A stretch of DNA of 64,000 bases from an uncultured Bacteroidota bacterium (GTDB taxonomy: Bacteria; Bacteroidota; Ignavibacteria; Kryptoniales; JAKASW01). The notes under the pieces are model-generated. The model was not told the origin of the DNA and ran no database searches. It saw only the letters and a program-made list of their open reading frames with translations. The DNA is taken from contig CAWEES010000002.1 in assembly GCA_963808245.1 (NCBI GenBank), forward strand, positions 113,676-177,675, given 5' to 3'. Within the stretch, counting starts at the first letter, position 1. Each line of letters starts with the position of its first letter. Shown one piece after another: positions 8,344 through 62,422 of this stretch. A program made the position numbers and the translations under genes.

Positions 8344-8454
8344 GAACTCCTTCATTCTTAATGTCGAATTAATTTATTCTAAAATCTGTTTACGATATTT
8401 TACACAATAAAGCGAGTGAATTTGTCCTTTTTTTTCTCCAATTTAATTTAAAGT

Positions 8455-11340: not shown

Positions 11341-11389
11341 TTTTAGATTCAAAAATATGAAGCGATATTGGATTGTTGAGAATTAATTG

Positions 11390-12385
11390 ATGACTACTTA
11401 TAAACAAAGCGGCGTAAACATAGACGAAGCGGAAGATCTTGTAAATAGAATCAAGCCGCTCGCCAAGCGAACATTCAATAAAAATGTCTTGTCCGAGATC
11501 GGATTCTTCGGAGGTTTTTTTAACGGGAAATTCGCAGGTTATCGAAATCCCGTTTTAGTTTCAAGCGTGGATGGAGTAGGAACAAAAGTCAAAATTGCGA
11601 TCGAAATGAACAAGCACGACACCATAGGCCAGGATTTAGTCAATCATTGTGTAAACGATATCGGCGTCGGAGGTGCGAAGCCGCTCTTCTTCCTGGATTA
11701 TTTTGCCTGTGGAAAGTTAAGCGCCGATATTGCGGAACAAGTTATCAAAGGTTTATCGATTGCGTGCAAAGAAAACGACCTTGCGTTAATTGGAGGAGAA
11801 ACTGCGGAGATGCCGGGGGTTTACTCGGAACATGATTATGATTTGGCCGGGACAATCGTCGGCGTTGTGGATAAATCCAAGGTGATAGACGGAAGTAAAG
11901 TTAAGAAAGGGGATTTGCTCATCGGCATTGCTTCGACGGGATTGCATACAAACGGGTACTCTCTGGCAAGGAAAACATTGTTGTCAAGGTATAATATCGA
12001 TAGTTTCATCGATGAGCTTGGCGAAACTGCCGGAGAAGCACTGCTTAAAACGCATAGGTCCTATTCAAAGTTGATAGCATTTGTCACAAAAAAATACTCG
12101 ATTCACGGTATGTCGCATATTACCGGTGGCGGCATAGTAGGAAACACTTCCCGAGTGATTAGAAAACCGCACGGGTTCAAAGTGTTTTGGGAAAATTGGG
12201 AAGTGCCGCCGATTTTCAAATTGATCCAATCGATAGGGAATGTTCCGGATGAAGATGTGAGGCGTACTTTGAATATGGGTGTTGGATTGATTCTGATCGC
12301 ATCGAAAAGAGAATCCGATTCCATTCTCGAAAGTTTGAGGAAAAAAGGTGAAAAGTGTTTCATCGTTGGAGAAGTTATTGCCTAG
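11390..12385 (+). CDS. purM: phosphoribosylformylglycinamidine cyclo-ligase (AIR synthetase)
   Basis: YKQSGVNIDEA, SSVDGVGTKVKIA, VNHCVNDI, FLDYFACGKL, IGGETAEMPG and GLHTNGYSLARK motifs. I prefer the ATG at 11390 over the adjacent TTG at 11387. Confidence 0.9.
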   Translation: MTTYKQSGVNIDEAEDLVNRIKPLAKRTFNKNVLSEIGFFGGFFNGKFAGYRNPVLVSSVDGVGTKVKIAIEMNKHDTIGQDLVNHCVNDIGVGGAKPLFFLDYFACGKLSADIAEQVIKGLSIACKENDLALIGGETAEMPGVYSEHDYDLAGTIVGVVDKSKVIDGSKVKKGDLLIGIASTGLHTNGYSLARKTLLSRYNIDSFIDELGETAGEALLKTHRSYSKLIAFVTKKYSIHGMSHITGGGIVGNTSRVIRKPHGFKVFWENWEVPPIFKLIQSIGNVPDEDVRRTLNMGVGLILIASKRESDSILESLRKKGEKCFIVGEVIA

Positions 12386-12617
12386 CTGATGATCACCCTT
12401 TTCCTGATGCATTATTTTCTCGTCTGATTTTACTTTCCCATATCTATCATACCGAATCGTTTATCTCATTTCCTGCGACTTCATTTATTCAATTAGAGGC
12501 GTCTCCGTAAATTGGATGAATTAATATGAGACTTAATTCAGGACTAGATTTGCCGGAATATAAAATCATGTATTTCAACGGATGATAGTTTGAAACTGAA
12601 CCGAACAATTTCTAACA

Positions 12618-14237
12618 TTGTTCAGTTTGATAAAACAGCAAATAGAGCCGGATACATGCAATTCAAATAGAGATAGCGATGTAAGAGGTGAACTCACGAA
12701 CAAGACAATATTTATCTTCTTGCTTACCGTATTAGTAAATTGGAATTCCCAATCGTTTGCTCAGGAAAAGAAATCGAATTTGGTTACCATTGCCGCCAAT
12801 GATACGAAAGTCGAAATCATCCGAAAGGCGGCGAACGTCGTTCCCTCGCGTGAGCAGTACGATTGGCAGAAGATGGAGTATATTGCATTCGTCCATTTTG
12901 GATTGAACACATTCACATCGAACGAATTGGGGAACGGAAGCGAGGATCCGAAACTGTTCAACCCGACGAGTCTGGATTGTGACGAATGGGCCCGCGTTTT
13001 CAAGAATGCGGGGATCAAAATGGCGATACTAACCGCAAAACATCACGATGGATTTTGTCTCTGGCCGAGCAAATACACAGACTATTCCGTTAAAAAAAGT
13101 AATTGGAAAAACGGGAAGGGGGACGTCGTCCGTGAATTTGTAAATGCATGCAGAAAGTATAATCTGAAAGTCGGGTTCTATCTATCCCCCTGGGATAGGA
13201 ATAATCCGAGTTATGGGACATCCAGATACAACGAGTATTTCATGGATCAGCTAATAGAACTTCTCTCGAATTATGGCAAGATCACTGAAGTGTGGTTCGA
13301 CGGCTACAAAGGTACAGGGTCAAAATCGGAAACTTATGATTGGCATTCATATTACAAGTTGATCAGAAAACTTCAGCCCCAGGCATTGATCGCAATTATG
13401 GGCGATGATATACGATGGGTTGGAACTGAATCCGGATACGGGAGAGAAACTGAATGGGACGTATTACCGATCGACTTGAGTGGACTCACTAAGGATGAAA
13501 TATCAAAGGAAGTTCATCCGATTGACGAGGTATTTACCCCGCGTAATTATTTGGGAAATGATCTCGGGAGCAGGGACTCGCTTTACGACTCCAAGGGATT
13601 ATTCTGGTATCCCTCGGAAACAGATGTATCTATACGTCCCAACTGGTTCTACGTTGCGTCTCAGGACAGCGCTGTGAAATCAGTTGCTCAGTTAGTAGAC
13701 ATCTATTTCAATTCTGTCGGAAAGAATTCAGTATTGCTTCTCAATGTACCGGCTGACAAGAGAGGATTAATTTCCAGTTATGACATAAGAGCATTAAGAG
13801 GACTTCACGATGTTATTACCGAGACCTTTCGAACGAATATGGCCAGCAGTTCAATCGTCAACATTGACGGAAGCGGAAAGGCGATCAGTTTCTTTAAATT
13901 ATTTGGCAATGACAGGTACTGGAGCGCAAACAAAGGATCCGATACCGCCTCATTGGAATTTGAATTTAATAAGGAAAAAACTTTCGACGTCGCAATGTTA
14001 CAGGAACAGATCAAAGTTGGTCAGAGAATAGAAAAGTTTCACATCGATTACTGGGACGGAAATGGATGGCAGAATTTGACAAGCGGCACGACAGTTGGAT
14101 ACAAGAGACTCCTTCGCTTTAACCCTGTCACTACAACGGACGTGCGATTGGTGATCGATAAGTCAAGATTGAACCCGACGCTTTTTAAATTCGGATTGTA
14201 TATGCTCCCACCAGTCTATGTCCACACATCTCCTTGA
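12618..14237 (+). CDS. secreted alpha-L-fucosidase (GH29) with C-terminal F5/8-type-C (discoidin) domain
   Basis: GH29 motifs (AKHHDGFCLWPSKYTDYSV, YLSPWDRN, EVWFDG) and a C-terminal beta-sandwich region. A signal-peptide-like FIFLLTVLVNWNSQSFAQE lies about 28 aa after the only available TTG starts (12618 or 12627), so the start is uncertain. Confidence 0.8.
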   Translation: MFSLIKQQIEPDTCNSNRDSDVRGELTNKTIFIFLLTVLVNWNSQSFAQEKKSNLVTIAANDTKVEIIRKAANVVPSREQYDWQKMEYIAFVHFGLNTFTSNELGNGSEDPKLFNPTSLDCDEWARVFKNAGIKMAILTAKHHDGFCLWPSKYTDYSVKKSNWKNGKGDVVREFVNACRKYNLKVGFYLSPWDRNNPSYGTSRYNEYFMDQLIELLSNYGKITEVWFDGYKGTGSKSETYDWHSYYKLIRKLQPQALIAIMGDDIRWVGTESGYGRETEWDVLPIDLSGLTKDEISKEVHPIDEVFTPRNYLGNDLGSRDSLYDSKGLFWYPSETDVSIRPNWFYVASQDSAVKSVAQLVDIYFNSVGKNSVLLLNVPADKRGLISSYDIRALRGLHDVITETFRTNMASSSIVNIDGSGKAISFFKLFGNDRYWSANKGSDTASLEFEFNKEKTFDVAMLQEQIKVGQRIEKFHIDYWDGNGWQNLTSGTTVGYKRLLRFNPVTTTDVRLVIDKSRLNPTLFKFGLYMLPPVYVHTSP

Positions 14238-14305
14238 GATTGAATTTCTTAATCAGGCTAATGCATTGTTTACAAAGCTAAAAATTTTGAAGAAGGTCCA
14301 ATATA

Positions 14306-16552
14306 ATGAGAGAACTTGGCTTCGTCTTTATTCTTATAACTGCAGTTTGTTTGACAAAGGGTCTCGCCCAAACACCCATCAACATAATACCCAAACCCGA
14401 TTCGATAGTGAACAAAGTCGGTTCGTTCACATTCTCGAGGACTACGTTGATTAGTAGTGAAATTACTCTTGATAGACTTTCAGAATATTTGTCACAGGAA
14501 TTGCAAGTACTAACCAAGATATCGCCGCAAGTGAACGACTCTCCCGGATTAAAAAAGACGGATGTCATACTGTTGAGCGTGGATTCCACGTTTGTTCCTC
14601 CAAACCCGGAGGGCTACTTCCTTGAGGTTTCCACGAAGGAAGTCTTGCTCAGGGCGAGGACTGATACAGGTCTATTTAGAGGCATTCAAACGCTTCTTCA
14701 GCTTTTCCCGCTTGCAGATTCCGTCCGCAAAGGAGAGAGCTATAGCATCCCTTGCTGTACCATCATCGACTATCCAAGATTTACCTGGCGCGGCTTGAAC
14801 CTCGATTGTTGCCGCCATTTCATGACTAAAGATTTCATTAAACGATATATCGACCTTCTGGCATATTACAAGTTCGACGTTTTCCATTGGCATCTGACAG
14901 ACGATCAGGGCTGGCGGATCGAAATCAAAAAGTATCCAAAGCTTACGCAAATAGGGGCGTGGCGGAAGGAAGCCGACGGAACCGTTTATGGCGGGTTCTA
15001 TAGTCAGGATGATATTAAGGATGTCGTTGCGTATGCGCAAAGCAGATTTATAACAGTTGTACCTGAAATTGAAATGCCGGGCCATTGCACGGCTTCACTC
15101 GCAGCATATCCCGAGAACTCTTGTACCGGTGGGCCTTTTGCGGTCGGAATTAGGTGGGGAGTTTATAAAGATGTCTATTGTGCCGGTAAAGAATCTACGT
15201 TCACTTTTCTTGAGAATGTTTTAACCGAAGTGATGGACCTTTTCCCGTCTCATTACATCCATATTGGCGGAGACGAAGTGCCGAAAGACAGATGGAAAGT
15301 ATGTCCATTTTGCCAGAAGAGAATCAAAGACGAAGGGTTAAAGGATGAAGAAGGTTTGCAGAGCTATTTCATGAAGCGAATCGAGAAGTTCGTTGAGTCA
15401 AGAGGAAGAGAAGTAATCGGGTGGGACGAAATATTGGAGGGAGGTCTTGGTCCAGACGCGACAGTCCAATCATGGCGAGGCATAGACGGAGCTATCCAGG
15501 CTGCTCAAAGCCAACATAATACGATTGTCTCTCCTGAGGGCTACACATATCTTAATCGGAGTGCGGATGAACTGGGCATAGACACTGTCTATTCCTTTGA
15601 CCCCGTTCCAAAAGGGCTGAGTGTTGATGAATCGCGCTACGTTCTTGGTACCGAGGCCAATATGTGGAGTGAACAGGCGCCGCAGGAAACGATAGACAGC
15701 AAATTATTCCCGCGCATCCTGGCGTTGTCTGAAATTGCCTGGACTCAACCACAAAAAAAGAATTATGACGACTTTCACAAGAGACTGGAGATCGAGTATG
15801 ATCGTTTAGCTTATCTTGGAGTGAACTTTGGGCCCGAAAAGCAGGCAATACTTTTCCAGACTAAATTGGACACGACAAAAGATGAGTTTACTATAAGTCT
15901 TAAGGCAGGGCAAGGCGATTCAAAGATTCACTACACGTTAGATGGAAGCTTGCCCACGCGGTCTTCATTTACCTATGAAGAACCTCTCATTATAAAAAAT
16001 TCAACTGAACTTTCCGCGCAGTTGGAAATGAGGGGAAGGCTTCTCGGCAGCCCGGTCAACCTGGCATTTACAATTTCCAAGACATTGAATTCCAAAATCT
16101 CGCTGAAGACCTCGTACTCGGAAAAATATCCCTCTGGCGGTCCTGGTTCTCTCGTCGACGGTATTCGCGGGACAATGGATTTCCATGACGGGTTCTGGCA
16201 GGGTTACGAAGGAGTGGACATTAAGGCAATAATCGATCTTGGAAAAGAGGAAGAGATATCACAAGCTGGAGCCGGATTTTTCCAGGCGACAGATTCATGG
16301 ATCTTCATGCCTGACAGCGTCGAATTCTTCGTATCAAGCGACGGCGTTAACTTCATAAATGTTGGAGTGGTGAGGAACGATGTCCCGCAGAAAGACCCTG
16401 ACCCGGTAAAGAAGGATTTCGTAGTTTCGTTTGACAAAAAGACAACACGCTACATAAAGATGGTTGCCAAGAATATCGGCATTTGTCCTCCCTGGCATGA
16501 CGGAGCAGGAGGGAAAGCCTGGCTTTTCATAGATGAGATCTTTGCTAACTAG
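14306..16552 (+). CDS. secreted beta-N-acetylhexosaminidase (GH20) with C-terminal carbohydrate-binding-like domain
   Basis: Signal peptide. GH20 signature FHWHLTDDQGWRIEIKKYPKL, PEIEMPGH and IHIGGDEV (catalytic D-E). C-terminal discoidin-like region. Confidence 0.85.
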   Translation: MRELGFVFILITAVCLTKGLAQTPINIIPKPDSIVNKVGSFTFSRTTLISSEITLDRLSEYLSQELQVLTKISPQVNDSPGLKKTDVILLSVDSTFVPPNPEGYFLEVSTKEVLLRARTDTGLFRGIQTLLQLFPLADSVRKGESYSIPCCTIIDYPRFTWRGLNLDCCRHFMTKDFIKRYIDLLAYYKFDVFHWHLTDDQGWRIEIKKYPKLTQIGAWRKEADGTVYGGFYSQDDIKDVVAYAQSRFITVVPEIEMPGHCTASLAAYPENSCTGGPFAVGIRWGVYKDVYCAGKESTFTFLENVLTEVMDLFPSHYIHIGGDEVPKDRWKVCPFCQKRIKDEGLKDEEGLQSYFMKRIEKFVESRGREVIGWDEILEGGLGPDATVQSWRGIDGAIQAAQSQHNTIVSPEGYTYLNRSADELGIDTVYSFDPVPKGLSVDESRYVLGTEANMWSEQAPQETIDSKLFPRILALSEIAWTQPQKKNYDDFHKRLEIEYDRLAYLGVNFGPEKQAILFQTKLDTTKDEFTISLKAGQGDSKIHYTLDGSLPTRSSFTYEEPLIIKNSTELSAQLEMRGRLLGSPVNLAFTISKTLNSKISLKTSYSEKYPSGGPGSLVDGIRGTMDFHDGFWQGYEGVDIKAIIDLGKEEEISQAGAGFFQATDSWIFMPDSVEFFVSSDGVNFINVGVVRNDVPQKDPDPVKKDFVVSFDKKTTRYIKMVAKNIGICPPWHDGAGGKAWLFIDEIFAN

Positions 16553-16676
16553 TTGTCGAATTCATAGTACCTGAACAAATGCGGTCATCAATTTTGTAAG
16601 CATACTATCAACTGAATCATGGTAAAATATTTTCAGCTAGTCGGATAAATGACGTATCATGGAAGGAGAGTTATAA

Positions 16677-18122
16677 GTGAAAAAATTATTTGTTCTAATT
16701 TTCTCTACGCTCTTAGTGGTAAACATCTCTCTCGCTCAAGAAATCGCTCAAAGATATTATCCTGAAACTGATTCTCTCGTCGTAAAAAAACTTAACGAAT
16801 GGCAGAAGATAAAGTTCGGATTACTGATGCATTGGGGTACATATAGCCAGTGGGGAGTCGTCGAATCCTGGTCAATCTGCTCAGAGGATGAAGGATGGGA
16901 GACAAGAAACGACTCAAATTATACCGAATATAAAGAGAAATATCAGAACCTGATAAAAACTTTTAATCCGGTAAAATTCGATCCGGCAAAGTGGGCTGAA
17001 GCCGCCAAAGAAGCGGGAATGAAGTACGTCGTATTTACAACAAAGCATCACGATGGGTTCTGCATGTTCGATACCAAGACAACCGACTATAAGGTGACAG
17101 GCCCGGAATGCGCGTTTCACACCGATCCCCGCGCGAACATCACCAAGGAAATCTTCGATGCCTTCCGGAAAGACGGGTTCATGATTGGCGCTTATTTCTC
17201 GAAGCCAGATTGGCATAGTCCATACTATTGGTGGCCGAACTTTGCAACACCCGACCGTAATCCAAACTACAGCATCAAACGATATCCGGATCGTTGGCAA
17301 AAATTCGTGGAGTACACGCAAACACAGATCGATGAGCTCATGTCGAATTACGGACATCTGGACATCCTATGGCTGGACGGAGGCTGGGTGAGGAAAAAGA
17401 CAGAGACGGAGATTCTGAATGAAAAACTGAATGCCGATTATCCGGTTTTTCCACAGAGCCAGGACATCGATATGCCGTTGATAGTAAATAAGGCTCGTGA
17501 GAAGCAGCCTGGTCTTATCGTGGTCGACCGAGCAGTGTCCGGCCCGAACCAGGACTACCTTACACCTGAAAATACGGTTCCCCAAAAACCGCTTCCATAT
17601 CCATGGGAAACATGCATGCCCATGGCCACAAGCTGGTCTTATGTTCCTCATGATAAATATAAAACAGTCAACGAATTGATAGATCTTCTAGTTGATATTG
17701 TATCAAAAGGAGGAAATTTCCTACTGAATATTGGCCCCGGCCCGGACGGTGAATTTGATCCAGTCGCATACGATCGGCTGAAAGGGATCGGCGAATGGAT
17801 GAAAGTGAATAGCGAAGCAATCTATGACACGCATCCTGTACCACCTTATAAGGATGGAAAAATTTCCCTGACCCAACTTGACGACGGAACGACTTATGCG
17901 ATTTACCTTGCAGACAGGAACGAAATTAATCCTCCTTCGAAAATATGGTTGTCTGAAATATCTCCCTTCGAGGGGGCCAAGGTGACATTGCTCGGATCGG
18001 ATGAGGAACTCAAGTGGGAAAAAATCGGCAAAGGTTTCGAGGTAAACATCCCGCTAGAATATCAGAAACATCCACCATGCGAATATGCCTGGGTACTGAA
18101 AATCTCAGGTATTCAAAAATAA
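16677..18122 (+). CDS. secreted alpha-L-fucosidase (GH29), second copy
   Basis: Signal peptide MKKLFVLIFSTLLVVNISLAQE. TKHHDGFCMFDTKTTDYKV, YFSKPDWH and ILWLDGGW motifs. Paralogous to the gene at 12618-14237. GTG start with a GGAAGGAGAG SD. Confidence 0.8.
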   Translation: MKKLFVLIFSTLLVVNISLAQEIAQRYYPETDSLVVKKLNEWQKIKFGLLMHWGTYSQWGVVESWSICSEDEGWETRNDSNYTEYKEKYQNLIKTFNPVKFDPAKWAEAAKEAGMKYVVFTTKHHDGFCMFDTKTTDYKVTGPECAFHTDPRANITKEIFDAFRKDGFMIGAYFSKPDWHSPYYWWPNFATPDRNPNYSIKRYPDRWQKFVEYTQTQIDELMSNYGHLDILWLDGGWVRKKTETEILNEKLNADYPVFPQSQDIDMPLIVNKAREKQPGLIVVDRAVSGPNQDYLTPENTVPQKPLPYPWETCMPMATSWSYVPHDKYKTVNELIDLLVDIVSKGGNFLLNIGPGPDGEFDPVAYDRLKGIGEWMKVNSEAIYDTHPVPPYKDGKISLTQLDDGTTYAIYLADRNEINPPSKIWLSEISPFEGAKVTLLGSDEELKWEKIGKGFEVNIPLEYQKHPPCEYAWVLKISGIQK

Positions 18123-36141: not shown

Positions 36142-36344
36142 ATTAGAGAGGAAAGTGAACGGAAAGGATACCGGCCGGAACAACGCGGAAGTGTCTACTG
36201 ATAAGATTAAGCACCGATTCATTCGAGGGCAATTAATGATTTTGAAAATTGTTCCGATATTTATACCTATGACGTGAGGCTAGTCAAGTAGTTCCTATTT
36301 TAGCGTATGAGATTTCATTAAAGAATTAAATTTTGGAGAAATAG

Positions 36345-36752
36345 ATGGCATTAGTAGGATGGAGCAGTAAATATGCAGTAAACATCGCTGAAATAGATCG
36401 GCAACACCAAAGATGGTTTGATATTTTGAATGACCTTCATGAGGCGATGAAATCAGGAAAAGGAAAAGAAAAATTGGGGGAGATATTCGAGGGCCTGGTC
36501 GAATATACAAAAGTGCATTTTCAAGCGGAAGAAAAACTTATGCGGCAAAATGGATATCCGTTTTATGAAGGCCACAAGAAGATCCATGACGACATGATAA
36601 AAGAAGTAGAATTGCTCCAGTTGAGATACAAATCCGGTGAAGTTGCACTAAGCGTTGATGTCATGAATTTCTTGAGGAACTGGCTTAGCGACCATATTAT
36701 GGGAACTGACAAAAATTACGGGCCATATCTGAATTCGAAAGGAATTTCATAA
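36345..36752 (+). CDS. bacteriohemerythrin
   Basis: The full set of hemerythrin iron ligand contexts is present: IDRQHQRWF, HFQAEEKLM, HKKIHDDM, WLSDHIMGTD. Confidence 0.8.
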   Translation: MALVGWSSKYAVNIAEIDRQHQRWFDILNDLHEAMKSGKGKEKLGEIFEGLVEYTKVHFQAEEKLMRQNGYPFYEGHKKIHDDMIKEVELLQLRYKSGEVALSVDVMNFLRNWLSDHIMGTDKNYGPYLNSKGIS

Positions 36753-37076
36753 CCATCCGATTCCGGCTTTCTTAACGTTTCCGCGGTGTCCGGAGAAACG
36801 TCATCTTGTTACAGAGCATTTCATTCTTCTACTTACTGATCCAGTAATTCTCGCTTGATCATATTTAAAACCCCGACTTACATATCCAGATAGCACAGTT
36901 AGTATAGAATCTAGAACCTCTTTGCCATTGCGATTGTTATATGTTTATGCTTTTCTAAATGTTTTCTAGGTTAGTTAATGAACTTGTCGGATGCATTCAA
37001 AAGGCATGAGTACTGATAAACAAAATAATCTTTGGAAATCATAGAGAATCCCCAAAAACTAAAAACCATTTCAATT

Positions 37077-38387
37077 ATGAGAATAATGAACATAGAAGAT
37101 TCCGAGTTACGAGAACACCATGATGTTCTATCCCGAAAGTACAAAGAGTTTCAGGCACAAAAACTTAAACTAGATCTGTCACGAGGTAAGCCTTGCCCGG
37201 CTCAATTGGATCTTTCCGACGGGATGATGGATTGTCTCAGCAAAACCGATTACAAGACTATCGGCGGTACCGATTGCCGTAATTACGGTGGCGTAGACGG
37301 AATTCCCGAAGCAAAAGAACTCTGCGCCGGAATTTTGGAAGCAAGCCCCAAAGAAATAATTATCGGGGGAAATTCCAGTCTAGCTATGATGCATGATCTG
37401 ATTGCCAGGGCCATGGTACGCGGTTTGCCCGGGGTTGACACTCCATGGATACATTTGCCGTCCGTAAAATTTCTTTGCCCGAGCCCCGGCTATGATCGAC
37501 ATTTTTCAATCTGTGAATATTTTGGGATTGAAATGATTCTTACCAATTATTTAAATGACGGCCCTGACATGGATCAAGTAGAGGAAATGGCCCTGAGCGA
37601 TTCATCCATCAAAGGCATCTGGTGCGTACCCAAATATAGCAATCCAACAGGGATTACTTATTCTGACGAAGTTGTGGAACGCCTGGCAGCGATGACAACG
37701 AAAGCTCCCGACTTCCGAATATTTTGGGATAATGCTTATGCACTCCATCATTTGTATGATCCCACCGACCGGTTATTAAATATTTTGGATGCCTGTAAGA
37801 AAGCGGGACATTCTGACCGAGTTTTTGTATTCAGTTCAACTTCCAAGATCAGTTTTGCCGGCGCAGGTATCGGTATGATGGCCGGAAGCGAAACCAATAT
37901 AAACTGGCTTAGAAAGCAGATGATAATCCAAACAATTGGACCCGATAAATTGAATCAACTGCGACACGTTCGTTTCTTCAAAGATCATGCGGGTATCGAA
38001 ACCCACATGAAGCGGCATGCCACCATCCTCAGACCAAAATTTGATCTCGTATTGCAGATTCTAGAATCGGAGTTGGGCGATAAGAACCTTGCCGACTGGA
38101 ATAAGCCGAAGGGTGGATACTTTATAAATTTAAACACGCATCCCGGCTGTGCTCAAAAGGTAGTAGCAAAAGCTGCCGCGGCAGGGGTCACTCTCACCGA
38201 TGCTGGAGCTACTTTTCCTTATGGTCAGGATCCAGAAGACAAGAACATCCGGATCGCGGTCACTTTCCCGGGTTTATCTGAATTAAAATCAGCGACCGAG
38301 TTGCTGGCTCTCTGCGTTCAACTCGTCGCTACTGAAACTGAGTTTGTTCGGCGTGGATACAAAGCTCAGGTATCAGTGGACGGGTAA
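37077..38387 (+). CDS. PLP-dependent class I/II aminotransferase (AspB / subgroup Ic-like)
   Basis: LDLSRGKPCPAQLDLS N-terminal motif. YSNPTG and SSTSKISFAGAGIG (PLP-lysine context). I chose the ATG at 37077; the track TTG at 37032 is also possible. Substrate specificity cannot be told from sequence. Confidence 0.65.
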   Translation: MRIMNIEDSELREHHDVLSRKYKEFQAQKLKLDLSRGKPCPAQLDLSDGMMDCLSKTDYKTIGGTDCRNYGGVDGIPEAKELCAGILEASPKEIIIGGNSSLAMMHDLIARAMVRGLPGVDTPWIHLPSVKFLCPSPGYDRHFSICEYFGIEMILTNYLNDGPDMDQVEEMALSDSSIKGIWCVPKYSNPTGITYSDEVVERLAAMTTKAPDFRIFWDNAYALHHLYDPTDRLLNILDACKKAGHSDRVFVFSSTSKISFAGAGIGMMAGSETNINWLRKQMIIQTIGPDKLNQLRHVRFFKDHAGIETHMKRHATILRPKFDLVLQILESELGDKNLADWNKPKGGYFINLNTHPGCAQKVVAKAAAAGVTLTDAGATFPYGQDPEDKNIRIAVTFPGLSELKSATELLALCVQLVATETEFVRRGYKAQVSVDG

Positions 38388-41243: not shown

Positions 41244-41632
41244 AGGATGCTTACAAACAAGTACAAGGCAGTCCGACGTCATCGAATGGAATTAGCGCTT
41301 AACACATTCTGTGAATCCACATTGAATATTCTTTCGTCGATTGAAGACCTCAAGTCGCAAGCAACTGACTTGGAAGTGCTTCAGCTGTAAAGTAACTTAA
41401 TAAGTTCGGTTGCCAAGCCTGAAAATGTTCTATGAACCGATGGGCTTAAAAGTTGTAAATGGTTGGTTAAACGACTTTAATATTTCTTTGAGTATGAAAT
41501 ATTAAAAGAGCAAAAATTAGCCAACGAGACGTGGCCAAGTCAGGGAATGCATTGTCCACTTTTGCGAAGTATGCGTACCATCTATGCAGAGTCAACAGAA
41601 AAAGATAATTAAAATTTACTCATTAAGTACAA

Positions 41633-43948
41633 ATGACTTTGAGTGATTCACAGGTACCTGATCGTACAGAAGAAAAAGAATCAATCTCAACAACTCTTAA
41701 GCACTGCCCGTCTTGCTACGGAGAGGTAAAAGCCGACGCGGTCAAGTGCGAACATTGCGGCAGATTGCTTTCATCTGGATCGACCCCGATTGAGAACAAC
41801 CCTGAGTCAAATGTCAAAGTTGCTCTTGCCTCAAAGTACGAGATAGTTGAAAGCCTTGGTAAAGGCGAGGTATGCACCGTCTACAGGGCTATCCATCGTG
41901 ATCTGAATAAAGAAGTTGCTCTTGAGATCCTTCCACATCATTTGGCACAAAGCCGGGAGTACGTCGATCGTTTTCACAGAGAGGCACATGCCGCTTCCGT
42001 TCTAAATCATCCAAACATCACTAAAATATTTGATGAAGGAGTCGAAAATGGAGTCCACTTCATCGCCGTAGAGTATCTCGACGGAACAGACCTTCACACA
42101 CTGATTATGTGGAAGGGAAGACTTGACTCCGAAGAGTCGGTAAATATCATTACCCCAGCCGTTGAAGCTCTCGCTTATGCCCATGAGAGAGGAATTTTAC
42201 ACAGAGATATTAGAAGCTCAAACATTATGGTGACTGATATGGGGAGATCGGTCTTGACAGATTTTTGGATCGACCATGCCTTCAGAGGTGCCAAACTAGC
42301 TCAAGCTGCAAGAGTTATCGGCACATTAGAATATATGAGCCCGGAGCAAGCAGAGGGTAAGGAACTTGGACGAAGCAGCAATATTTATTGCCTTGGGATA
42401 GTCCTCTATGAGGCATTGACCGGAAAGGTTCCATTCACGGGCGGGAACCCATTCACAACGGTGGGTAAAATAATCAATAGCCCTCCGGTCCCGCCAAGGC
42501 AGATTTCTCCTTCGATACCAATCTGGATGGAAGAAATCATTCTCAAGTGTCTTGCAAAAAAACCTGAGAACCGATTCTCAAGTGCTGCAGAGTTGGCCGG
42601 TGTACTGCTGAGAAGCATGCACCCAACTGCGGCCACAATGCTTCAACCATCTTCAGACGCAATTCCAATTGTTCATCCGAAGGAAAAAGAGCATGAAAAA
42701 AAGGAAAAGCCGAAAAGAAAAGGGCCGATCACTATCGTGCCCAAGTCCTCTTCCGAGTCAATTCAAATTCTCCAACCAGGAAAAGAACAAATTGAAGAGC
42801 CGTCTGAGATAAGAAAGGAAAAACGTAACTGGCGGATTCCGACTAAGGCCTTCTTCAAGGTTGTCGTTCCCCTCATGGCTGTAGGAGTGGCTATTGCTCT
42901 TATACTCAACCACCCGTCTTTTTTACATCTTAAAATGGGAAACTCTGTACCATCGCCTGTCAACAAAACTAGATCCGAGATCCCTGTTGTTACCCGAATA
43001 ACCAAGACTCAGCAAACACAACCCTCTAATTCCACGCCTGATAAAAATCGGGCACTCATTAGTGCGCCGGGCTCAGCTAAACAAGGAACAATAAACCCAA
43101 GCGGTGTGCCTAATAAAATAATTTCCACAAGTCAAGAGGCAAACGCATCAAAGGAAACCGCTGAGCGAACACCGAATCTGCCCAAAACAATAGCTGACAA
43201 AAAGGGGCAGCCAGTAGTTCAACCTTTAGCGCCGGATAAAGTGGAACGTCAAAGTCAACTTAATAGTATTCAATGGACTTTCGTTGAAGGCGGGACATTT
43301 CAGATGGGAAGCAATGATTACCCTTATACAAAGCCTGTACATTCTGTCAAGGTTTCTGGCTTTCATATGAGCACAACAGAAATAACGTTTGACCAATACG
43401 ACAAATTCTGCGACGCTACCCATACCAAGAAGCCAAACGATAATGGATGGGGAAGGGGAAAAATGCCGGTTGTCAACGTAAGCTGGAACGATGCTTTGGC
43501 TTATTGCCGATGGATGTCAGACCAAACTGGGAAGACGATTCGTCTCCCTTCAGAAGCTGAATATGAATTTGCGGCACGAGGCGGAAATAAAAGTGAAGGG
43601 TCTCAATACAGCGGTACCGACAATATTGGGTGGACTGCCTGGTATATTGGAAACTCAGGCGGCATACCACATGAAGTTGGTACAAAGGCACCTAATGCAC
43701 TTGGCTTATATGACATGAGTGGAAACGTGTGGGAATGGTGTGAGGATTGGTACCACCAATCGTATGACAAGGCTCCCGCAGACGGAAGCGCCTGGAAAGT
43801 TGAAGATCGTTATAACCCGTATAGGGTCGTGCGCGGTGGCTCGGCGAAGGGTGCGAGCTACTGTAGCTTGGTTTCGTTCCGATTCTTTCTCCTTCCATAC
43901 TTCAGGGACAACGTCATCGGGTTTCGTTGCGTTCAGGAAGCAAAGTGA
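41633..43948 (+). CDS. membrane receptor: zinc ribbon + degenerate Ser/Thr protein-kinase domain + TM helix + C-terminal FGE-sulfatase (SUMF1-like) domain
   Basis: Zinc ribbon [19 protein letters not shown]. Hanks-type kinase fold with altered catalytic motifs (details in findings). One hydrophobic helix, [22 protein letters not shown]-sulfatase motifs [37 protein letters not shown] and RVVRGGS. Confidence 0.8.
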
Positions 43949-44070
43949 TGGTAAAGAATGCGTTCTTCTCCGCCAACTCAGATTCTGCAAAAAGAGAGGC
44001 TATCAGTTCTCGCCGCTCAGTTTGCAATTTACTCGATAATTTCATAGATTTAAGCATAAAAGGAGAACCA

Positions 44071-44292
44071 ATGCGAACCGGAATCCACCCTAAATATCAT
44101 ATAGTGACAGTAACCTGTGTTTGTGGCAATACATTCCAAACTCGTTCAACGGAACCTGGTCAGTTTTTAAAAGTAGAAATTTGCTCGAGTTGCCATCCAT
44201 TCTTTACGGGTAAACAAAAACTTATTGACTCTGCTGGTCGTGTTGAAAAGTTTATGCGTAAGTATGGAAAGAAGGCCGAAGCTGAAGCCTAA
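44071..44292 (+). CDS. rpmE: 50S ribosomal protein L31
   Basis: [10 protein letters not shown]...CxC...[13 protein letters not shown]...[12 protein letters not shown] strong SD (AAAGGAGA) lies 5-12 nt upstream of the ATG at 44071. The longer track ORF from 43927 is an artefactual 5' extension. Confidence 0.92.
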
Positions 44293-50645: not shown

Positions 50646-51253
50646 CCCACTTAGAGCACTTATTTACACTTCTGAACAATACCGCTCCGATTTACCTTTA
50701 CTTGAGTTTATTCTTCTTTGCTTTTCTAGAAAATCTTTTCCCGCCGTCGCCAAGTGATTTGGTCATAGCTTTCGGGGGGTCCCTCGTTGGCCTCGGCAAA
50801 CTCAATGTTTTTACAGCAATATTCTTTTCGACTCTCGGAAGCACAGCTGGATTTATTCTCATGTATTACATAGGATTTTTCCTCGGTAGAGAGTTGATTG
50901 ATTCCGGCAAAATAAAATTTCTACCGGTCGATAAGATAAAAACCGTCGAAGGCTGGTTCATAAAATATGGGTATGGAATTGTTGTCGCGAATCGATTCCT
51001 TTCCGGCACGCGGGCGGTGATTTCATTCTTTGTCGGGCTTTCCGAATTATCAATTGCGATCACCTTGCCCCTTTGCGCTTTAAGCGCGCTTCTTTGGAAC
51101 ACGATTCTAATCATGGGCGGTTCTATCCTTGGCCACAATTGGAAACAATTGGAACACTATCTTGACATTTATGGAACGATAGTCGGGATAATTATTTTAT
51201 TAGCGATTGTATTCATAGTTGTCCGTTATGTTCGCAGGCAAAAACATGCTTAA
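50642..51253 (+). CDS. DedA/VTT-family membrane protein
   Basis: FLENLFPPSPSD...GG and RFLSGTRAVISFFVG motifs, with 4-5 hydrophobic helices. I prefer the GTG at 50642, which overlaps the ispF stop (GTGA). The track start at 50612 would be an in-gene overlap. Confidence 0.7.
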   Translation: MTHLEHLFTLLNNTAPIYLYLSLFFFAFLENLFPPSPSDLVIAFGGSLVGLGKLNVFTAIFFSTLGSTAGFILMYYIGFFLGRELIDSGKIKFLPVDKIKTVEGWFIKYGYGIVVANRFLSGTRAVISFFVGLSELSIAITLPLCALSALLWNTILIMGGSILGHNWKQLEHYLDIYGTIVGIIILLAIVFIVVRYVRRQKHA

Positions 51254-52448
51254 AAAGATTCTGAAAACTATGGGGATTTTACTTGCCGCCGTCATCCTCA
51301 GTTCGATTGCCAACGACCTCCTGACATATCGAATCGAAAGGGAAGCAGGAATAAATTTCGGCAAGTACCACGAATATTCAGGAGTGATACACATACATTC
51401 AACTTATTCCGACGGCAGCGGGACTTATGCGCAAATCGGAAAAATATGTGATTCACTCGGACTCGATTTCGCGATCATAACCGACCACAACACTGTGCAG
51501 CCACTGAAGGACAGCCTTGCAAACCGCTTTGGTGTTACACTTATCGTCCCCGCCGTGGAGATTTCCACTGACGGTGAACATGGGCATTTTCTCGTAGTAG
51601 GCGACAGCATTCCTCTGGTTCCGCGCAACGGTGTTACTTCCGATTCCGTGTTCCACGATGCACTCCATAAGAAGAGTATCGTGATACTCGCACATGTCTT
51701 TCATCCCCGGAGCACACTTGATTGGGACAACTGGAACATAGGGAATTTTACAGGCATCGAATTGTATAATTTCGATGAAGGTTGGAGAAATACTTTAAAC
51801 TTTTTCAGGATTAACAAATTGATCGGGGTATATCTTGCCTATAAACTTCAACCGGATCCTTTAAACTACGTATTAAGCTATCCAGAAAAAGAAATAAAAA
51901 AGTTTGACGAACTGAACATGAACCGAAAGGTCATCGGCATCGGTTCATTGGATGCTCACGCGAACATAAAACTGGGAAAAAGTGGAAGCTGGCATTTCCC
52001 ATCCTATCAGAGTTTATTTAACCTTGTCCATACGGTGATAGTTACAAGAGAACCCTTCAACGGAACTTATCGCCACGACAGGACATTATTGTTGAACGCA
52101 GTTCGAAACGGAAACATGTTTGTCGCTTTTTCCGGGCTCGAGCAGGCGCGAGGTTTTTTGTTTACCGCGAATTCTGATACAAACGAAGTAATAATGGGAG
52201 ACAGCTTAAAAGTTGAGACTTCAGCAACCCTTCACGTTGAGATGCCGGACAGCGACGATGTTGAAACGCAGGTTGTTTGGAACGGACAAGTAATTGCTTC
52301 CTACGACAACGCGAGCTCAATTAATCTTCCTGTGGTTCATCCCGGAGAATATCGTATCCAAGCATTCCAGAAAAGGACCATGCTGCCGCTTTTTATAAAG
52401 CGATCATTCCCATGGATATTGTCGGATCCTATTTATATCTATCGCTAA
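51246..52448 (+). CDS. membrane-anchored PHP-family (CehA/McbA-like) metallophosphoesterase
   Basis: N-terminal anchor MLKKILKTMGILLAAVILSS. PHP metal motifs GVIHIHSTYSDG, FAIITDHN, EISTDGEHGHF, ILAHVFHP and SLDAHAN. Function unknown. Confidence 0.6.
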   Translation: MLKKILKTMGILLAAVILSSIANDLLTYRIEREAGINFGKYHEYSGVIHIHSTYSDGSGTYAQIGKICDSLGLDFAIITDHNTVQPLKDSLANRFGVTLIVPAVEISTDGEHGHFLVVGDSIPLVPRNGVTSDSVFHDALHKKSIVILAHVFHPRSTLDWDNWNIGNFTGIELYNFDEGWRNTLNFFRINKLIGVYLAYKLQPDPLNYVLSYPEKEIKKFDELNMNRKVIGIGSLDAHANIKLGKSGSWHFPSYQSLFNLVHTVIVTREPFNGTYRHDRTLLLNAVRNGNMFVAFSGLEQARGFLFTANSDTNEVIMGDSLKVETSATLHVEMPDSDDVETQVVWNGQVIASYDNASSINLPVVHPGEYRIQAFQKRTMLPLFIKRSFPWILSDPIYIYR

Positions 52449-59101: not shown

Positions 59102-59182
59102 AACAATTTCCTGTAAAGAGACTTCTCAGCCAAGTCTTCTCAAAAAATGAATTGATTGCTAATTTTCACAAGGAGGTGTGAA

Positions 59183-62100
59183 ATGAAATACAATCTGTTA
59201 CGTCATGCTATGTATCAGCAGGACGCTTCTTTAATTTTCCTTTTCGTTATCTGTTTTGGGGTAGTAAATATTTTTTCAACAAATTGTGCCTTCGCACAGG
59301 ACTCTGTAAAAGATACTACCGACTTACTGCAGAACATTCCATTTAGAAATATCGGGCCAGCTGCGGCGGGTGGAAGAGTAAGTGCCGTTGTCGGAGTACC
59401 CGGTAAACCGAATATTTACTATGTCGGCGCAGCGGGAGGCGGCGTATTTAAAACCATTGACGGCGGAATATCATGGAAAGCCGTATTCGAGAAGGAACCT
59501 TCATTATCCATCGGAGCAATTGCAATCGCTCCTTCAAATCCGAATTTTATTTGGGTCGGAACGGGCGAGGCAAATTTAAGGAATGACATAATCACTGGAA
59601 AGGGAGTTTATTTTTCTCCGGACGCGGGGAAGTCGTGGCAGGAAATGGGATTAAAAGACGCCGGGCAAATTTCTCGCATTGTCATCGATCCTTCCAATCC
59701 GGACAATGTGTTCGTCGCCGCAATTGGGCACGCATGGGCACCGAATTCGGAAAGAGGGATATTTCGTACGACAGATGCTGGCAAAACATGGCAGAAAGTC
59801 TTATATGTGAACGATACAACCGGAGCTTCTGATTTAATTTTCGAACCCGATAACCCTAAAGTTCTCTTTGCAGCTCTATGGCAGGTTCAGAGGCACCCCT
59901 GGGCGCTTGATGACGGTGGAGACGGAGGTGGACTTCATCGCTCTACAGATGGTGGTACAACCTGGACAAAATTAACGGAAGGACTCCCGAAGAGACCACT
60001 CGGGAGAATTGCCCTGGCGGCAGCTCCGAGCGACCCCAATCACATTTACGCTCTGATTGAGACAAAGAATGGTTTGCTGTGGGATTCCGATGACCTCGGG
60101 GATCATTGGAAGATGGTTAGTAATAATCATGCACTCGATGTCCGTCCATTTTACTTCTCAAGGTTTATCGTGTCACCCGACAATGAAGACAAACTTTACT
60201 TCCTTTCTTTCATTATTTCTAAATCAACCGACGGCGGAAAAACTGCAAAAAGCATAAACGGAGAAGTTCACGTAGACCAGCATGATATCTGGATCGATCC
60301 ACAGAATCCCGACAGAATTATATTGGGAAATGACGGCGGCGTATATCTTTCATTGGATGGCGGAGATTCATGGCGGTTTCTAAACAATCTTCCCATCGAA
60401 CAGTTTTATCAAGTTGCCTCCGACAGCAGTAATCCGTATAACCTCGGTGGCGGATTGCAGGACAATAATGCCTGGTACGGGACTTCTCATAATCTTGACG
60501 GAAGAGCGATTACCGGACAGAACTGGTTTATCGTAGCAGGCGGCGACGGCGAATATGTCGTTCCTGCTCCAAGCAATCCAAACATAGTGTACGCCGAATC
60601 ACAAAACGGGTGGTTATCGAGGATTGATCTAAGAACAGGCATTTCAAAAGACATCAGGCCTTATCTCTATGATGCACCCGACATGCCGCCTTCTAAATTG
60701 AAGTACAGATTCAATTGGACAACCCCGATTGCAGTTGCTGCAAGTAACGAAAATGAGGTTTGTCTCGGCGCAAACGTTCTATTCAAAACCATGGATGGTG
60801 GAACACATTGGGAAGTTATCAGCCCAGACCTGACTCGAAATGATAAGTCCAAACAAATACCGAGCGGCGGCAAGGTCGAACTCGACATGAGCGGCGCGGA
60901 GAATTTTGATACAATACTTTCGATTGCAATCTCACCATTGGATTCAAACATAATCTGGATCGGCACCGATGACGGCCTTGTTCAGGTAACTCTTGACGGC
61001 GGTAAAACATGGGACAATGTCACGAAAAACATTCCTCAATTACCCGAGTGGGGAAGAATTTACCAGGTCGAACCCTCGCCATTCGACAAAGGCGGTTGTT
61101 GTATAACTGTCGATTTCCATGAATTAGATGACAATAGACCCTATGTTTTTGAAACAGACAATTTCGGTAAATCATGGACTTCAATTTCAAAAGGACTTCC
61201 TGATGGATATCCGGCACATGTCATACGCGAGGATCCTAACAAGAGAGGTTTACTTATCGTTGGGACCGACCACGGTCTTTATTATTCAAAAGATAATGGA
61301 ACTGGATGGCGGGACCTCAAGAGTAATTTCCCGACTGTTTGCGTGTACGATCTTAAGTTCGTGAAGCAGTCCCACGATTTTGTAGTGGCAACACACGGTC
61401 GCGGTATTTTTGTTCTCGATAACATAACGCCGCTCGAAGAGTTCGACAACAATATGGATCACGACAAGTTTCGACTTTTTACTGCGTTACCCGCATACAT
61501 GTTTCATAGGTGGGACAAGGATGGATTTAACGACCTCAGCACTTACTCAGCGCCAAATCCGCCTGCAGGAGCGATGATAGATTATTATTTGAAGGACACG
61601 ATTAGTATAACGCCAAAAGAAACCAAAGGACATGAAACTCCTGTAAAGGTTGAGATATCTTCTTCAGCTGAAAAACATGTGGCTACTCTTTATGGCACAG
61701 CTCACAAAGGATTCAATAGATACGTTTGGAATTTGCGTTATCAAAGCCCCGCACCATTAAGGTTGGACGATAGAGAAACAGAACGAGCGAATCCATTTAC
61801 ATCCAATGGACCGTTGGTTGTTCCCGGCGTTTACAAGATTCGCGTTACTGTCGATGGAATGACCGACACAACACAGGTTGAAGTTAAACCGGACCCGCGG
61901 TTTGAAACACCTTTAGATTTCTTTGCTTCAAATACCGATAACGGATTGAAAGCCAGAAATGAGATGTCAACCTTGAATGAAATGCTAAATAGGATCCAAA
62001 ATATTCAGTCCCAAATCGCGACGATAAGAAAATCGGTTGCCACGGATGAAAATGGGATGAAGTCAGGAAAATACAAAGCGGTTCTAGATCAACTCGATTC

Positions 62101-62422
62101 AGTTGAAACAAAGTGTTCGATCTTGAAAGACACCGTGTTTGACAAATCCATTCAGCATGAAGTCGGAGAGGACGACATACACAGTTTCTCTGATTTCCAT
62201 TCCCAGATGGGAGGAATGGTGTACGCGTTCGAGTCACCTTATAGTGGCATCCCAAACGACGTGGTGCTCAAGTATGCCGGATTGTTAGACAATGAACTAA
62301 GCGAATACCTGCAGCGATTCGACGGAATATTGGACAAGGACATTCCGGAATTCAATAAAATAGCGGAAGAGAATTCAGTCCCAATAATTTTCGGAGGACC
62401 GAGAATCGAAGTTGAGGAGTAG
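59183..62422 (+). CDS. secreted BNR/Asp-box repeat, sortilin (VPS10)-like beta-propeller protein
   Basis: Signal peptide ending NCAFAQD. Repeated Asp-box-like motifs: S.DGG.SW, T.DAGKTW, STDGGTTW, S.DLGDHW, S.DGGDSW, T.DGGTHW, T.DGGKTW, T.DNFGKSW, S.DNGTGW. ATG at 59183 with an AGGAGG SD. Confidence 0.65.
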   Translation: MKYNLLRHAMYQQDASLIFLFVICFGVVNIFSTNCAFAQDSVKDTTDLLQNIPFRNIGPAAAGGRVSAVVGVPGKPNIYYVGAAGGGVFKTIDGGISWKAVFEKEPSLSIGAIAIAPSNPNFIWVGTGEANLRNDIITGKGVYFSPDAGKSWQEMGLKDAGQISRIVIDPSNPDNVFVAAIGHAWAPNSERGIFRTTDAGKTWQKVLYVNDTTGASDLIFEPDNPKVLFAALWQVQRHPWALDDGGDGGGLHRSTDGGTTWTKLTEGLPKRPLGRIALAAAPSDPNHIYALIETKNGLLWDSDDLGDHWKMVSNNHALDVRPFYFSRFIVSPDNEDKLYFLSFIISKSTDGGKTAKSINGEVHVDQHDIWIDPQNPDRIILGNDGGVYLSLDGGDSWRFLNNLPIEQFYQVASDSSNPYNLGGGLQDNNAWYGTSHNLDGRAITGQNWFIVAGGDGEYVVPAPSNPNIVYAESQNGWLSRIDLRTGISKDIRPYLYDAPDMPPSKLKYRFNWTTPIAVAASNENEVCLGANVLFKTMDGGTHWEVISPDLTRNDKSKQIPSGGKVELDMSGAENFDTILSIAISPLDSNIIWIGTDDGLVQVTLDGGKTWDNVTKNIPQLPEWGRIYQVEPSPFDKGGCCITVDFHELDDNRPYVFETDNFGKSWTSISKGLPDGYPAHVIREDPNKRGLLIVGTDHGLYYSKDNGTGWRDLKSNFPTVCVYDLKFVKQSHDFVVATHGRGIFVLDNITPLEEFDNNMDHDKFRLFTALPAYMFHRWDKDGFNDLSTYSAPNPPAGAMIDYYLKDTISITPKETKGHETPVKVEISSSAEKHVATLYGTAHKGFNRYVWNLRYQSPAPLRLDDRETERANPFTSNGPLVVPGVYKIRVTVDGMTDTTQVEVKPDPRFETPLDFFASNTDNGLKARNEMSTLNEMLNRIQNIQSQIATIRKSVATDENGMKSGKYKAVLDQLDSVETKCSILKDTVFDKSIQHEVGEDDIHSFSDFHSQMGGMVYAFESPYSGIPNDVVLKYAGLLDNELSEYLQRFDGILDKDIPEFNKIAEENSVPIIFGGPRIEVEE

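Follow-up and report, generated by a model that had tools for sequence, protein, structure and literature searches.

The stretch of DNA considered here, called the window throughout, is the whole of a 64,000-nt segment (positions 113,676 to 177,675 of contig CAWEES010000002.1, assembly GCA_963808245.1) from an uncultured Bacteroidota bacterium of the Kryptoniales, and coordinates within it refer to the + strand unless stated otherwise. At 41633..43948 (+), between genes for aconitase and ribosomal protein L31 (rpmE), lies an open reading frame (ORF) with an ATG start that encodes 771 aa plus stop, exactly where the original prediction, made from the letters alone, had placed a receptor-like fusion protein with a catalytically dead kinase domain. 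We consider it probable, with appreciable room for doubt, that the product is a bitopic membrane protein that arose from an active receptor Ser/Thr kinase of the zinc-ribbon/PknB-like type and that is now a selectively maintained pseudokinase. This view is built on the residues at the catalytic positions, on their conservation among orthologues, and on a comparison with closely related kinases that retain a canonical active site.

Reading from the N-terminus, the protein begins with a CxxC-N10-CxxC zinc ribbon (residues 23-44; 41699..41764, +), which is matched weakly and below threshold by the Pfam families UPF0547, DZR and Zn_ribbon_3 and is modeled with a predicted local distance difference test score (pLDDT) of 77-86. 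There follows a Hanks-type, PknB-like kinase fold (41837..42583, +), whose limits are residues 69-317 according to Pfam and 57-329 according to the model. A charged, K/E/P-rich and disordered juxtamembrane linker (residues 330-403; 42620..42841, +; pLDDT <50) leads to a single transmembrane (TM) helix (residues 404-426; 42842..42910, +). Beyond the membrane are an extracytoplasmic stalk (residues 427-545; 42911..43267, +), disordered and rich in S/T/P/K/N/Q as judged by composition and a pLDDT of ~35, and a C-type-lectin-like domain with the fold of the formylglycine-generating enzyme (FGE)-sulfatase family (residues 546-771; 43268..43945, +), assigned by Pfam, PDB matches and a domain model. 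The predicted order of kinase, linker, single TM helix, spacer and FGE-sulfatase domain is borne out by Pfam, Kyte-Doolittle hydropathy and AlphaFold2. Specifically, Pkinase (PF00069) matches residues 69-317 with an E-value of 2.5e-42 (145.5 bits against a cutoff of 31.7), FGE-sulfatase (PF03781) matches residues 548-767 with an E-value of 5.6e-53 (180.6 bits), and the only strong hydrophobic peak, a Kyte-Doolittle maximum of 2.55 at residue 407, coincides with the model helix at 404-426. The full-length AlphaFold2 model, for which 29 aligned sequences served as input, contains a confident kinase fold at 57-329 (pLDDT >90 apart from the activation loop, 216-229), disorder at 333-401 and 433-542, and a confident FGE-fold domain at 546-771. 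When compared by Foldseek, the kinase part superimposes on M. tuberculosis PknB structures with target-normalised TM-scores (TMt) of 0.82-0.92; together with a Pfam score above the gathering cutoff, this places the domain firmly among Hanks-type folds.

Within this fold, residue equivalences were taken from a phmmer alignment to M. tuberculosis PknB (E 3e-54) that is ungapped across the N-lobe and the catalytic loop. The Gly-rich loop (G-loop) G76-K77-G78-E79-V80-C81 (GKGEVC; 41858..41875, +) corresponds to PknB G18-F19-G20-G21-M22-S23; Glu98 (GAG; 41924..41926, +) occupies the position of PknB K40, the β3 Lys of the VAIK motif; and E117 is equivalent to PknB E59, the αC Glu. The catalytic loop reads HRDIRSSN (42200..42223, +), in which D192 is PknB D138 (the HRD Asp), N197 is N143, and R194 (AGA; 42212-42214, +) stands at K140, the catalytic-loop Lys. 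The DFG motif, D156-F157-G158 in PknB, is DFW (D210-F211-W212; codons GATTTTTGG at 42260-42268, +), and the activation segment that extends from DFW to SPE (42260..42346, +) has W212 for the DFG Gly and D214 for Ala and is without the phospho-acceptor Thr (PknB T171). The codons and coordinates first quoted for E98, R194, DFW and GKGEVC are all correct, and the PknB alignment puts E98, R194 and W212 at the β3 Lys, the catalytic-loop Lys and the DFG Gly, respectively. Of the structural motifs described as retained, the HRD Asp, the SPE segment and the C-lobe are intact. The original prediction erred on the G-loop: it counted loss of the third Gly of the G-loop as a defect, whereas PknB (GFGGMS) and all 13 canonical sister kinases introduced below already have Ser or Ala there. 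The genuine clade-specific changes in this loop are G79 to Glu and A/S81 to Cys.

These changes are shared by every full-length orthologue found. A homologue search over 5.8 billion proteins returned the identical protein, eight full-length orthologue clusters (54-65% identity overall) and one N-terminally truncated cluster, and the motifs GKGExCTVY, VALEIL, HRDxRSSN and DFW occur in 9/9 full-length proteins when the window protein is included. Position by position, the β3 residue is Glu in all nine orthologues compared with Lys in 13/13 of the nearest canonical relatives, the catalytic-loop Lys is Arg194 in 9/9, and the DFG Asp210 and Phe211 are kept with Trp212 in place of Gly in 9/9. The HRD Asp (D192) and the catalytic-loop Asn (N197) are invariant; the αC Glu varies (E/D/V) among the orthologues and is not charge-swapped. 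The 13 nearest relatives outside the clade are canonical without exception (GxGGM, VALK, HRDxKxxN, DFG and an activation-loop Thr), as are 12 of 12 more distant kinase-FGE fusions, which also confirm that fusions of these two domains exist elsewhere. When 1.84 billion representatives clustered at 50% identity were searched exhaustively with phmmer, the whole clade fell in one cluster, and its nearest single-domain neighbors (P0012, P0187, P0210, P0213, P0241, P0267 and P0271; 51-56% identical) all have G79, M80, K98, K194 and G212. A neighbor-joining tree of kinase domains shows the clade as monophyletic, on a long stem, beside canonical zinc-ribbon kinases. A GTDB genome scan contained no orthologue among the matches listed, which were dominated by generic FGE-domain matches.

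With these sequences in hand, it is worth asking whether the gene is simply a normal kinase gene that is decaying, that carries a strain-specific mutation or that has been misread by sequencing. The codon of E98, GAG, is indeed a single transition from AAG. However, several independent assemblies contain this very protein, no break interrupts the reading frame, and the nine clusters share all of the changes, with synonymous turnover beneath them. Specifically, in the seven genes for which DNA was examined, E79 and E98 are encoded by GAG or GAA, R194 by AGA or AGG, V146 by GTA, GTC or GTT, and N250 by AAT or AAC, and D214 shows synonymous codon turnover too. Because synonymous codons differ across these genes, it is the altered amino acids themselves that are under selection. 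The pace of evolution points the same way. When six orthologous loci are compared with the window, identities are 69-77% for the kinase domain and 73-78% for the FGE domain, as against 74-79% for the CDF transporter, 56-73% for AlaX, 73-84% for aconitase, and 70-73% for RsmB in four loci (one further locus has a partial match and one has none). As these identities resemble one another, both folded domains evolve at a housekeeping pace. The shared changes, the independent assemblies, the synonymous turnover and the housekeeping-level conservation together refute decay or error, to which we assign a vanishingly small chance. The orthologue survey thus answers the question on which the original prediction had hung: E98, R194 and W212 are present in 9/9 and the canonical K/DFG in none, and since the orthologues keep the changes and alignment reveals no substitute Lys, the reading as a predicted pseudokinase gains support.

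The regions that connect the folded domains have evolved quite differently, with both linkers only 23-35% identical where alignable. The juxtamembrane linker (26-35% identity, with a match in 3/6 loci) is highly variable among orthologues in length and sequence, and the stalk is 23-34% identical in 4/6 loci. In P0008 and P0009 (L005 8001-10553), an EAEK/EKRR charged-repeat expansion of 60-100 residues lies in the juxtamembrane linker, an expansion that the window protein does not have; linker length is therefore unconstrained. The N-terminal zinc ribbon, noted in the original prediction as part of the protein, is real here but does not hold as a feature of the family, as only 3/9 pseudokinase orthologues retain it. 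Being present in the sister kinase family, it is an ancestral element. In P0006, one of the three that retain it, an in-frame upstream zinc ribbon (CPSCAAELEPDALKCQHCG) was left out by a miscalled start. Start-codon problems of this kind affect more than one orthologue (L090 ~3140-3262; L088 ~5960-6000), with P0006 miscalled and P0002 having ATT where others keep ATG.

A column-by-column comparison of the nine pseudokinases with the 13 canonical sisters and PknB shows which constraints have been exchanged, lost and gained. Type-II shifts, in which a position is conserved in each group but the residue differs, comprise G79E, A81C, K98E, M146V, K194R, G212W and A214D, and further P232L (in the P+1 loop), R248S, D250N and S253C. 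M146V falls at the gatekeeper position (PknB M92), and position 250 is that of the αF Asp, the anchor of the catalytic loop in active kinases. Constraint has been lost at M80, L91, R93, R116, T223, G226, T231 and D246, all invariant in the canonical group and free in the clade. Among these, T223 is the PknB activation-loop T171, T231 is the P+1 Thr (PknB T179), and L91 is PknB L33, a residue whose mutants L33D and L33E were crystallized in PDB 3ORI-3ORT and 6I2P. R116 lies in the αC helix, for which an atlas of bacterial Ser/Thr kinases (bSTKs) describes an Arg specific to these enzymes (10.1101/2025.01.12.632604). In 5/9 orthologues, the activation loop is shortened by a 6-residue deletion. 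Residues invariant only in the clade (T156, W160, R163, D202, R218, E244 and R247) map chiefly to the C-lobe and activation segment, and the hydrophobic core, the P+1/SPE segment and the C-lobe are intact. As read from the alignment, the lost constraints are coordinated, touching nucleotide clamping, phospho-activation and possibly back-to-back dimerisation, and new surface constraints have been gained. The cleft itself is predicted to be ~4 charge units more negative (K98E, G79E, A214D) and to be partly filled by Trp212.

An operational definition requires of a pseudokinase that at least one of the VAIK Lys, the HRD Asp and the DFG Asp be missing, and that the loss be conserved (10.1101/2025.01.12.632604). 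The clade falls within this definition by virtue of its β3 Lys-to-Glu change, which is fixed across orthologues under purifying selection. Nonetheless, a kinase fold that departs from the canonical motifs might be an atypical active enzyme. In this case D192, N197 and D210, together with E79, E98 and R194, would bind metal or nucleotide and support phosphorylation or some other nucleotide-dependent reaction, in the manner of WNK, CASK, POMK, SelO or SidJ. In keeping with such an enzyme, all nine proteins preserve the Asp of HRD, the Asn and the Asp of DFG; the P+1/SPE segment and the core are intact; and the DYD and DLHK pseudokinase families, which keep HRD and/or DFG, have been modeled with ATP (PMC12599244). 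However, the β3 residue is acidic, unlike the basic Lys-to-Arg replacement of DYD and ActPs2, the αC Glu varies without a charge swap, the P+1 Thr and the activation-loop Thr are unconserved, and the cleft has acquired about four negative charges. A replacement Lys, for which K77 had been named as a WNK-style candidate, is likewise not found by alignment: the WNK-type G-loop position is the invariant C81, and the canonical relatives also have basic residues at positions 77 and 85. With no clade-specific basic residue in the N-lobe or at pocket-lining sites, a WNK-, POMK- or DYD-style rescue of the missing Lys has no backing in the alignment, and we regard an atypical active enzyme as unlikely, although deserving of thought.

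The best sequence match of the extracytoplasmic domain in the PDB is T. denticola TvpA (2Y3C; E 1.3e-26), followed by PvdO and true FGEs. A separate model of the ectodomain (residues 529-771, pLDDT 90.6) gives a slightly different order in Foldseek, with PvdO first (query-normalised TM-score, TMq, 0.80), then TvpA and FGEs; identity to FGEs in these alignments is 23-29%. True FGEs are recognized by two Cu(I)-binding catalytic Cys (C272/C277 in S. coelicolor, C336/C341 in human). The present domain has the fold but not the pair: in the alignments to the S. coelicolor and T. curvata enzymes, the first Cu-binding Cys falls in a gap and the second aligns to C744. With one catalytic Cys missing, a true FGE enzyme is rejected, and the ectodomain is best described as an FGE-fold module for which formylglycine production is very unlikely. 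Indeed, TvpA shows that this fold can act as a binding module without FGE activity (PMC5758913).

Because TvpA is a variable protein of a diversity-generating retroelement (DGR) and is also the top PDB sequence match (2y3c, E 1.3e-26), the present protein could be thought of as a variable receptor diversified by such an element, particularly as FGE-sulfatase proteins are among the targets recorded in a survey of DGRs, and one of these targets also has a kinase domain (PMC5758913). The locus gives no sign of this. There is no direct repeat of at least 40 nt in the window, the 3′ 700 nt of the gene are without a template-repeat-like blastn match, no reverse transcriptase is encoded among window ORFs of at least 150 aa, and the would-be variable C-terminal region is highly conserved among orthologues. 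The absent repeat and template, the lack of a reverse transcriptase and the conserved C-terminus rule out a DGR target at this locus, and we give the idea practically no weight.

Considering all of the above, we propose that the protein is a working non-enzymatic sensor or docking protein, and probably not a broken gene. With Trp212 occupying part of a cleft that would be more acidic, the domain appears to have lost both ATP-dependent phosphotransfer and autophosphorylation of the activation loop. It would then be a stable module that docks, or regulates allosterically, a partner in the cytoplasm whose gene lies elsewhere; the most plausible candidates are an active paralogue among the Hanks kinases and the substrate of such a kinase. 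The interaction surface would probably be a newly constrained one on the C-lobe and activation segment, marked by W160, R163, D202, R218, E244 and R247. A PknB-type back-to-back N-lobe dimer is probably not used, because the L33-equivalent residue is no longer conserved. Outside the cell, the FGE-fold domain, carried on its disordered stalk of ~120 residues, may bind a conserved envelope or environmental ligand non-enzymatically. Any coupling between this ligand and the cytoplasm would proceed by clustering or localization rather than by a rigid relay, as the linkers are disordered and variable in length. We hold this more detailed scheme, with a docking or allosteric module acting through a new C-lobe surface, FGE-fold ligand binding on a flexible stalk, and clustering or localization in preference to a rigid relay, to be a plausible proposition on which opinion could fairly be divided.

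Several observations weigh against this interpretation. The invariance of D192, N197 and D210 in all nine proteins could mean that metal or nucleotide binding, or an unconventional reaction, has been retained. Src-type tyrosine kinases normally carry an Arg in their HRDxK motif (HRDLRAAN), where it is compatible with catalysis; hence R194 alone is not inactivating. The argument about the dimer interface hangs on a single residue. Finally, a search for partners in the window detected no other kinase, PP2C or FHA domain (Pfam, all ORFs of at least 150 aa), and a kinase-domain query detected no second kinase domain among its six-frame ORFs of at least 60 aa, so the earlier statement that no partner kinase or phosphatase is encoded in the window is upheld. 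Even with these points taken into account, it is quite likely, on the sequence evidence, that the protein does not act as a conventional protein kinase.

The surroundings of the gene were also compared with those of its orthologues. The spacer between the aconitase gene and the pseudokinase gene (41244..41632, +) exists as first described, but measures 389 bp and not 390 bp. It is weakly conserved except for the ~20 nt preceding the ATG, and an alignment of seven orthologous spacers has 36% mean column identity. A search of the flanking spacers for regulatory elements found no Rfam family at threshold, the single sub-threshold match falling within coding sequence, and no convincing + strand terminator. 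Directly 3′ of the aconitase stop, at window ~41290-41320, a short block of the form ATTTGCRCTTAAGA ... ATAAATTC recurs in ~4/7 loci (including the equivalent positions in L004, L005 and L088), with the remaining spacer unalignable. On the other side, rpmE does lie downstream as predicted but does not abut the pseudokinase gene: L31 homology begins at a Met at ~44071 (MRTGIHPKY...), ~120 nt past the pseudokinase stop codon and after an AAAGGAG ribosome-binding site. The gene so defined encodes 73 aa, in agreement with calls of 72-80 aa in orthologous loci. Both mechanical and automatic calls overextend rpmE (window 43927-44292, 114-121 aa), such that it overlaps or abuts the pseudokinase stop.

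In all seven genomic contexts the gene order is aconitase, pseudokinase gene and then rpmE-rsmB-fba-CDF-alaX, with downstream rearrangement in one locus only, and the conserved block around the pseudokinase gene is syntenic over at least 15 kb. A housekeeping block of this sort is vertically inherited, so that gene adjacency tells us little about function. This setting is relevant to another possible role, that of a single-gene antiphage kinase of the PD-T4-6 type or a kinase associated with MADS. PADLOC models for PD-T4-6 match residues 59-541 with E-values down to 9e-90, and the NCBIfam model MAD6 gives a partial, sub-cutoff match, but these matches cover only the generic kinase domain. Moreover, the gene sits within the hemerythrin-aconitase-X-rpmE-rsmB-fba block, where X is the gene itself, syntenic in 7/7 contexts; no defense genes are found nearby (Pfam, window ORFs of at least 150 aa), and catalysis would be expected to be necessary for a defense kinase. 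A defense role is accordingly very improbable, as is membership in a PADLOC defense system, the matches reflecting generic kinase similarity. As a separate matter, such PD-T4-6 matches could yield false defense-system calls for this pseudokinase gene.

A hemerythrin-domain gene is located just 5′ of aconitase in 5/7 contexts (L002, L005, L007, L088 and L089; window 36200-38387), and in L002, the genome of the window, the two are separated by an aminotransferase gene. Hemerythrin and aconitase make up a conserved iron- or O2-related neighborhood adjoining the pseudokinase gene, a link that is probably one of synteny only. A functional tie to aconitase was considered and rejected: the two genes are adjacent in 7/7 contexts, but synteny extends over the entire block, at least 15 kb in length, and shared ancestry is the simplest explanation. 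A more speculative reading is that the remodeled cleft is a new ligand site and the protein a two-sided sensor, with the FGE fold outside and a ligand-gated pseudokinase switch inside. In such a protein E79, E98 and D214 would act together with D192, N197, D210, the G-loop Cys and Trp212, either to bind a cationic metabolite or divalent metal or to carry out a reaction other than phosphotransfer, and the sensor might be tied to iron or oxidative status through the adjacent hemerythrin-aconitase pair. We think this improbable.

The rest of the window contains several features removed from the pseudokinase gene. At 2158-18122 there is a glycan-utilisation cluster with a 1179-aa alpha-amylase-family protein, an SSF symporter, two alpha-L-fucosidases and a GH20 hexosaminidase with F5/8 type C domains, interspersed with genes for pyridoxamine 5′-phosphate oxidase and a CNNM/CBS-domain transporter, with aroK and aroB, and with AIR-synthase-like genes. 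Two ORFs have no Pfam match at E 1e-6, one at 27-1010 (327 aa) and one at 51219-52448 (409 aa), the latter conserved in position in orthologous loci between a VTT-domain gene and lnt. A 1088-aa protein with Sortilin-Vps10 and BNR/Asp-box repeats is encoded at 59156-62422.

It is informative to place these findings among what is known of related proteins. The M. tuberculosis PknB/Stk1-type receptor kinases (PDB 1MRU/1O6Y) are the best sequence and structure match of the kinase domain, and they share its topology of a cytoplasmic N-terminal kinase, a juxtamembrane linker, one TM helix and an extracytoplasmic sensor. In contrast with PknB, the β3 Lys, the catalytic-loop Lys, the DFG Gly, the gatekeeper, the activation-loop phospho-Thr and L33 are changed or unconstrained in the present protein, and the sensor has an FGE fold rather than PASTA domains. 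It is not a member of the Stk1/PknB PASTA kinases: the NCBIfam model NF033483 scores 309 bits against a cutoff of 450, and there is no Pfam PASTA domain. The nearest relatives of the clade are instead a canonical zinc-ribbon plus kinase family of FCB-group bacteria (P0011-P0017, P0021, P0187 and others), whose kinase domains have 45-52% mean identity to the clade and 51-56% to the window protein. Their N-termini carry the same CPxCG...KCxxCG ribbon, and in P0011 (kinase-TPR-FGE) the C-terminus is of the FGE-sulfatase type as well. Their active-site motifs are all canonical, and the pseudokinases form a separate monophyletic branch. This active sister family provides a natural experiment in how a receptor kinase becomes a pseudokinase, and in the order in which constraints on phospho-regulation, the dimer interface and the nucleotide clamp are lost.

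Bacterial pseudokinases have been catalogued only recently, from RefSeq and UniProt, and functions are known for almost none of them. Seven families, ActPs1-3, GLW, CP1, DYD and DLHK, have been defined in an atlas (bioRxiv 10.1101/2025.01.12.632604) and in a review by the same group (PMC12599244); the atlas places FGE-sulfatase with the canonical Proteo1 family (10.1101/2025.01.12.632604). Because none of the seven, by description, has a β3 Glu, DFW or an FGE-sulfatase domain, the clade is a small new pseudokinase family in a known category, matching none of those published by description. What sets it apart is the combination of β3 Lys-to-Glu, a G-loop Glu and DFW with an otherwise complete catalytic loop and a fused extracytoplasmic FGE-fold domain. 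The family is best taken as restricted to one lineage, probably Candidatus Kryptoniota: the DnaK encoded in the window shares 83-88% identity with proteins named Candidatus Kryptonia or Kryptoniota, compared with 75% for those of Bacteroidota and Ignavibacteriae. Its impact is limited by this narrow distribution (~10 clusters, from an uncultured lineage). One orthologue is named by NCBI as a ‘bifunctional serine/threonine-protein kinase/formylglycine-generating enzyme family protein’, a name that is probably wrong on both counts.

Among the published families, DYD (Kannan-lab atlas, 10.1101/2025.01.12.632604; review, PMC12599244) is nearest in logic, being membrane-associated, with the β3 Lys lost, the HRD Asp and DFG Asp kept and the αC Glu relaxed. 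However, DYD proteins have a β3 Arg paired with the second Asp of their DYD motif, are found in Actinobacteria and Firmicutes and have no reported FGE domain, whereas the present clade has a β3 Glu and DFW and belongs to an FCB-group lineage; it is thus not a DYD family. The GLW family is similar in being membrane-anchored, with a C-terminal TM segment, and in having a bulky hydrophobic residue or Trp in the active site. GLW proteins, though, have GLW instead of HRD and Leu or Trp instead of the β3 Lys, and the Asp of HRD and that of DFG are missing from them. Here these two Asp remain and Trp takes the place of the DFG Gly, which excludes membership in that family too.

The FGE-fold domain has its own set of precedents. 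With FGE itself (SUMF1; S. coelicolor 2Q17/6MUJ), it shares the Pfam family, the NVWEW core motif and the overall fold, but of the two Cu(I)-binding Cys the first lies in a gap and only C744 is present. Closer in character are PvdO (5HHA), TvpA (2Y3C) and PorK/GldK, all non-catalytic proteins of the FGE-sulfatase fold, of which PvdO is the best structural match and TvpA the best sequence match. Unlike these, the present protein has neither a lipoprotein signal nor a DGR, and its FGE-fold domain is joined via a TM helix to a kinase fold. For that kinase fold, the parallel lies with the MviN/MurJ-linked pseudokinase (ActPs3), with which it has no sequence relationship beyond the fold but would share a concept, that of a membrane kinase-fold protein that recruits or allosterically regulates partners. 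MviN is without all three catalytic residues, has a shortened activation loop and has a known partner. The eukaryotic receptor pseudokinases HER3 and plant BIR2, whose partners are likewise known, embody the same partner-recruiting concept.

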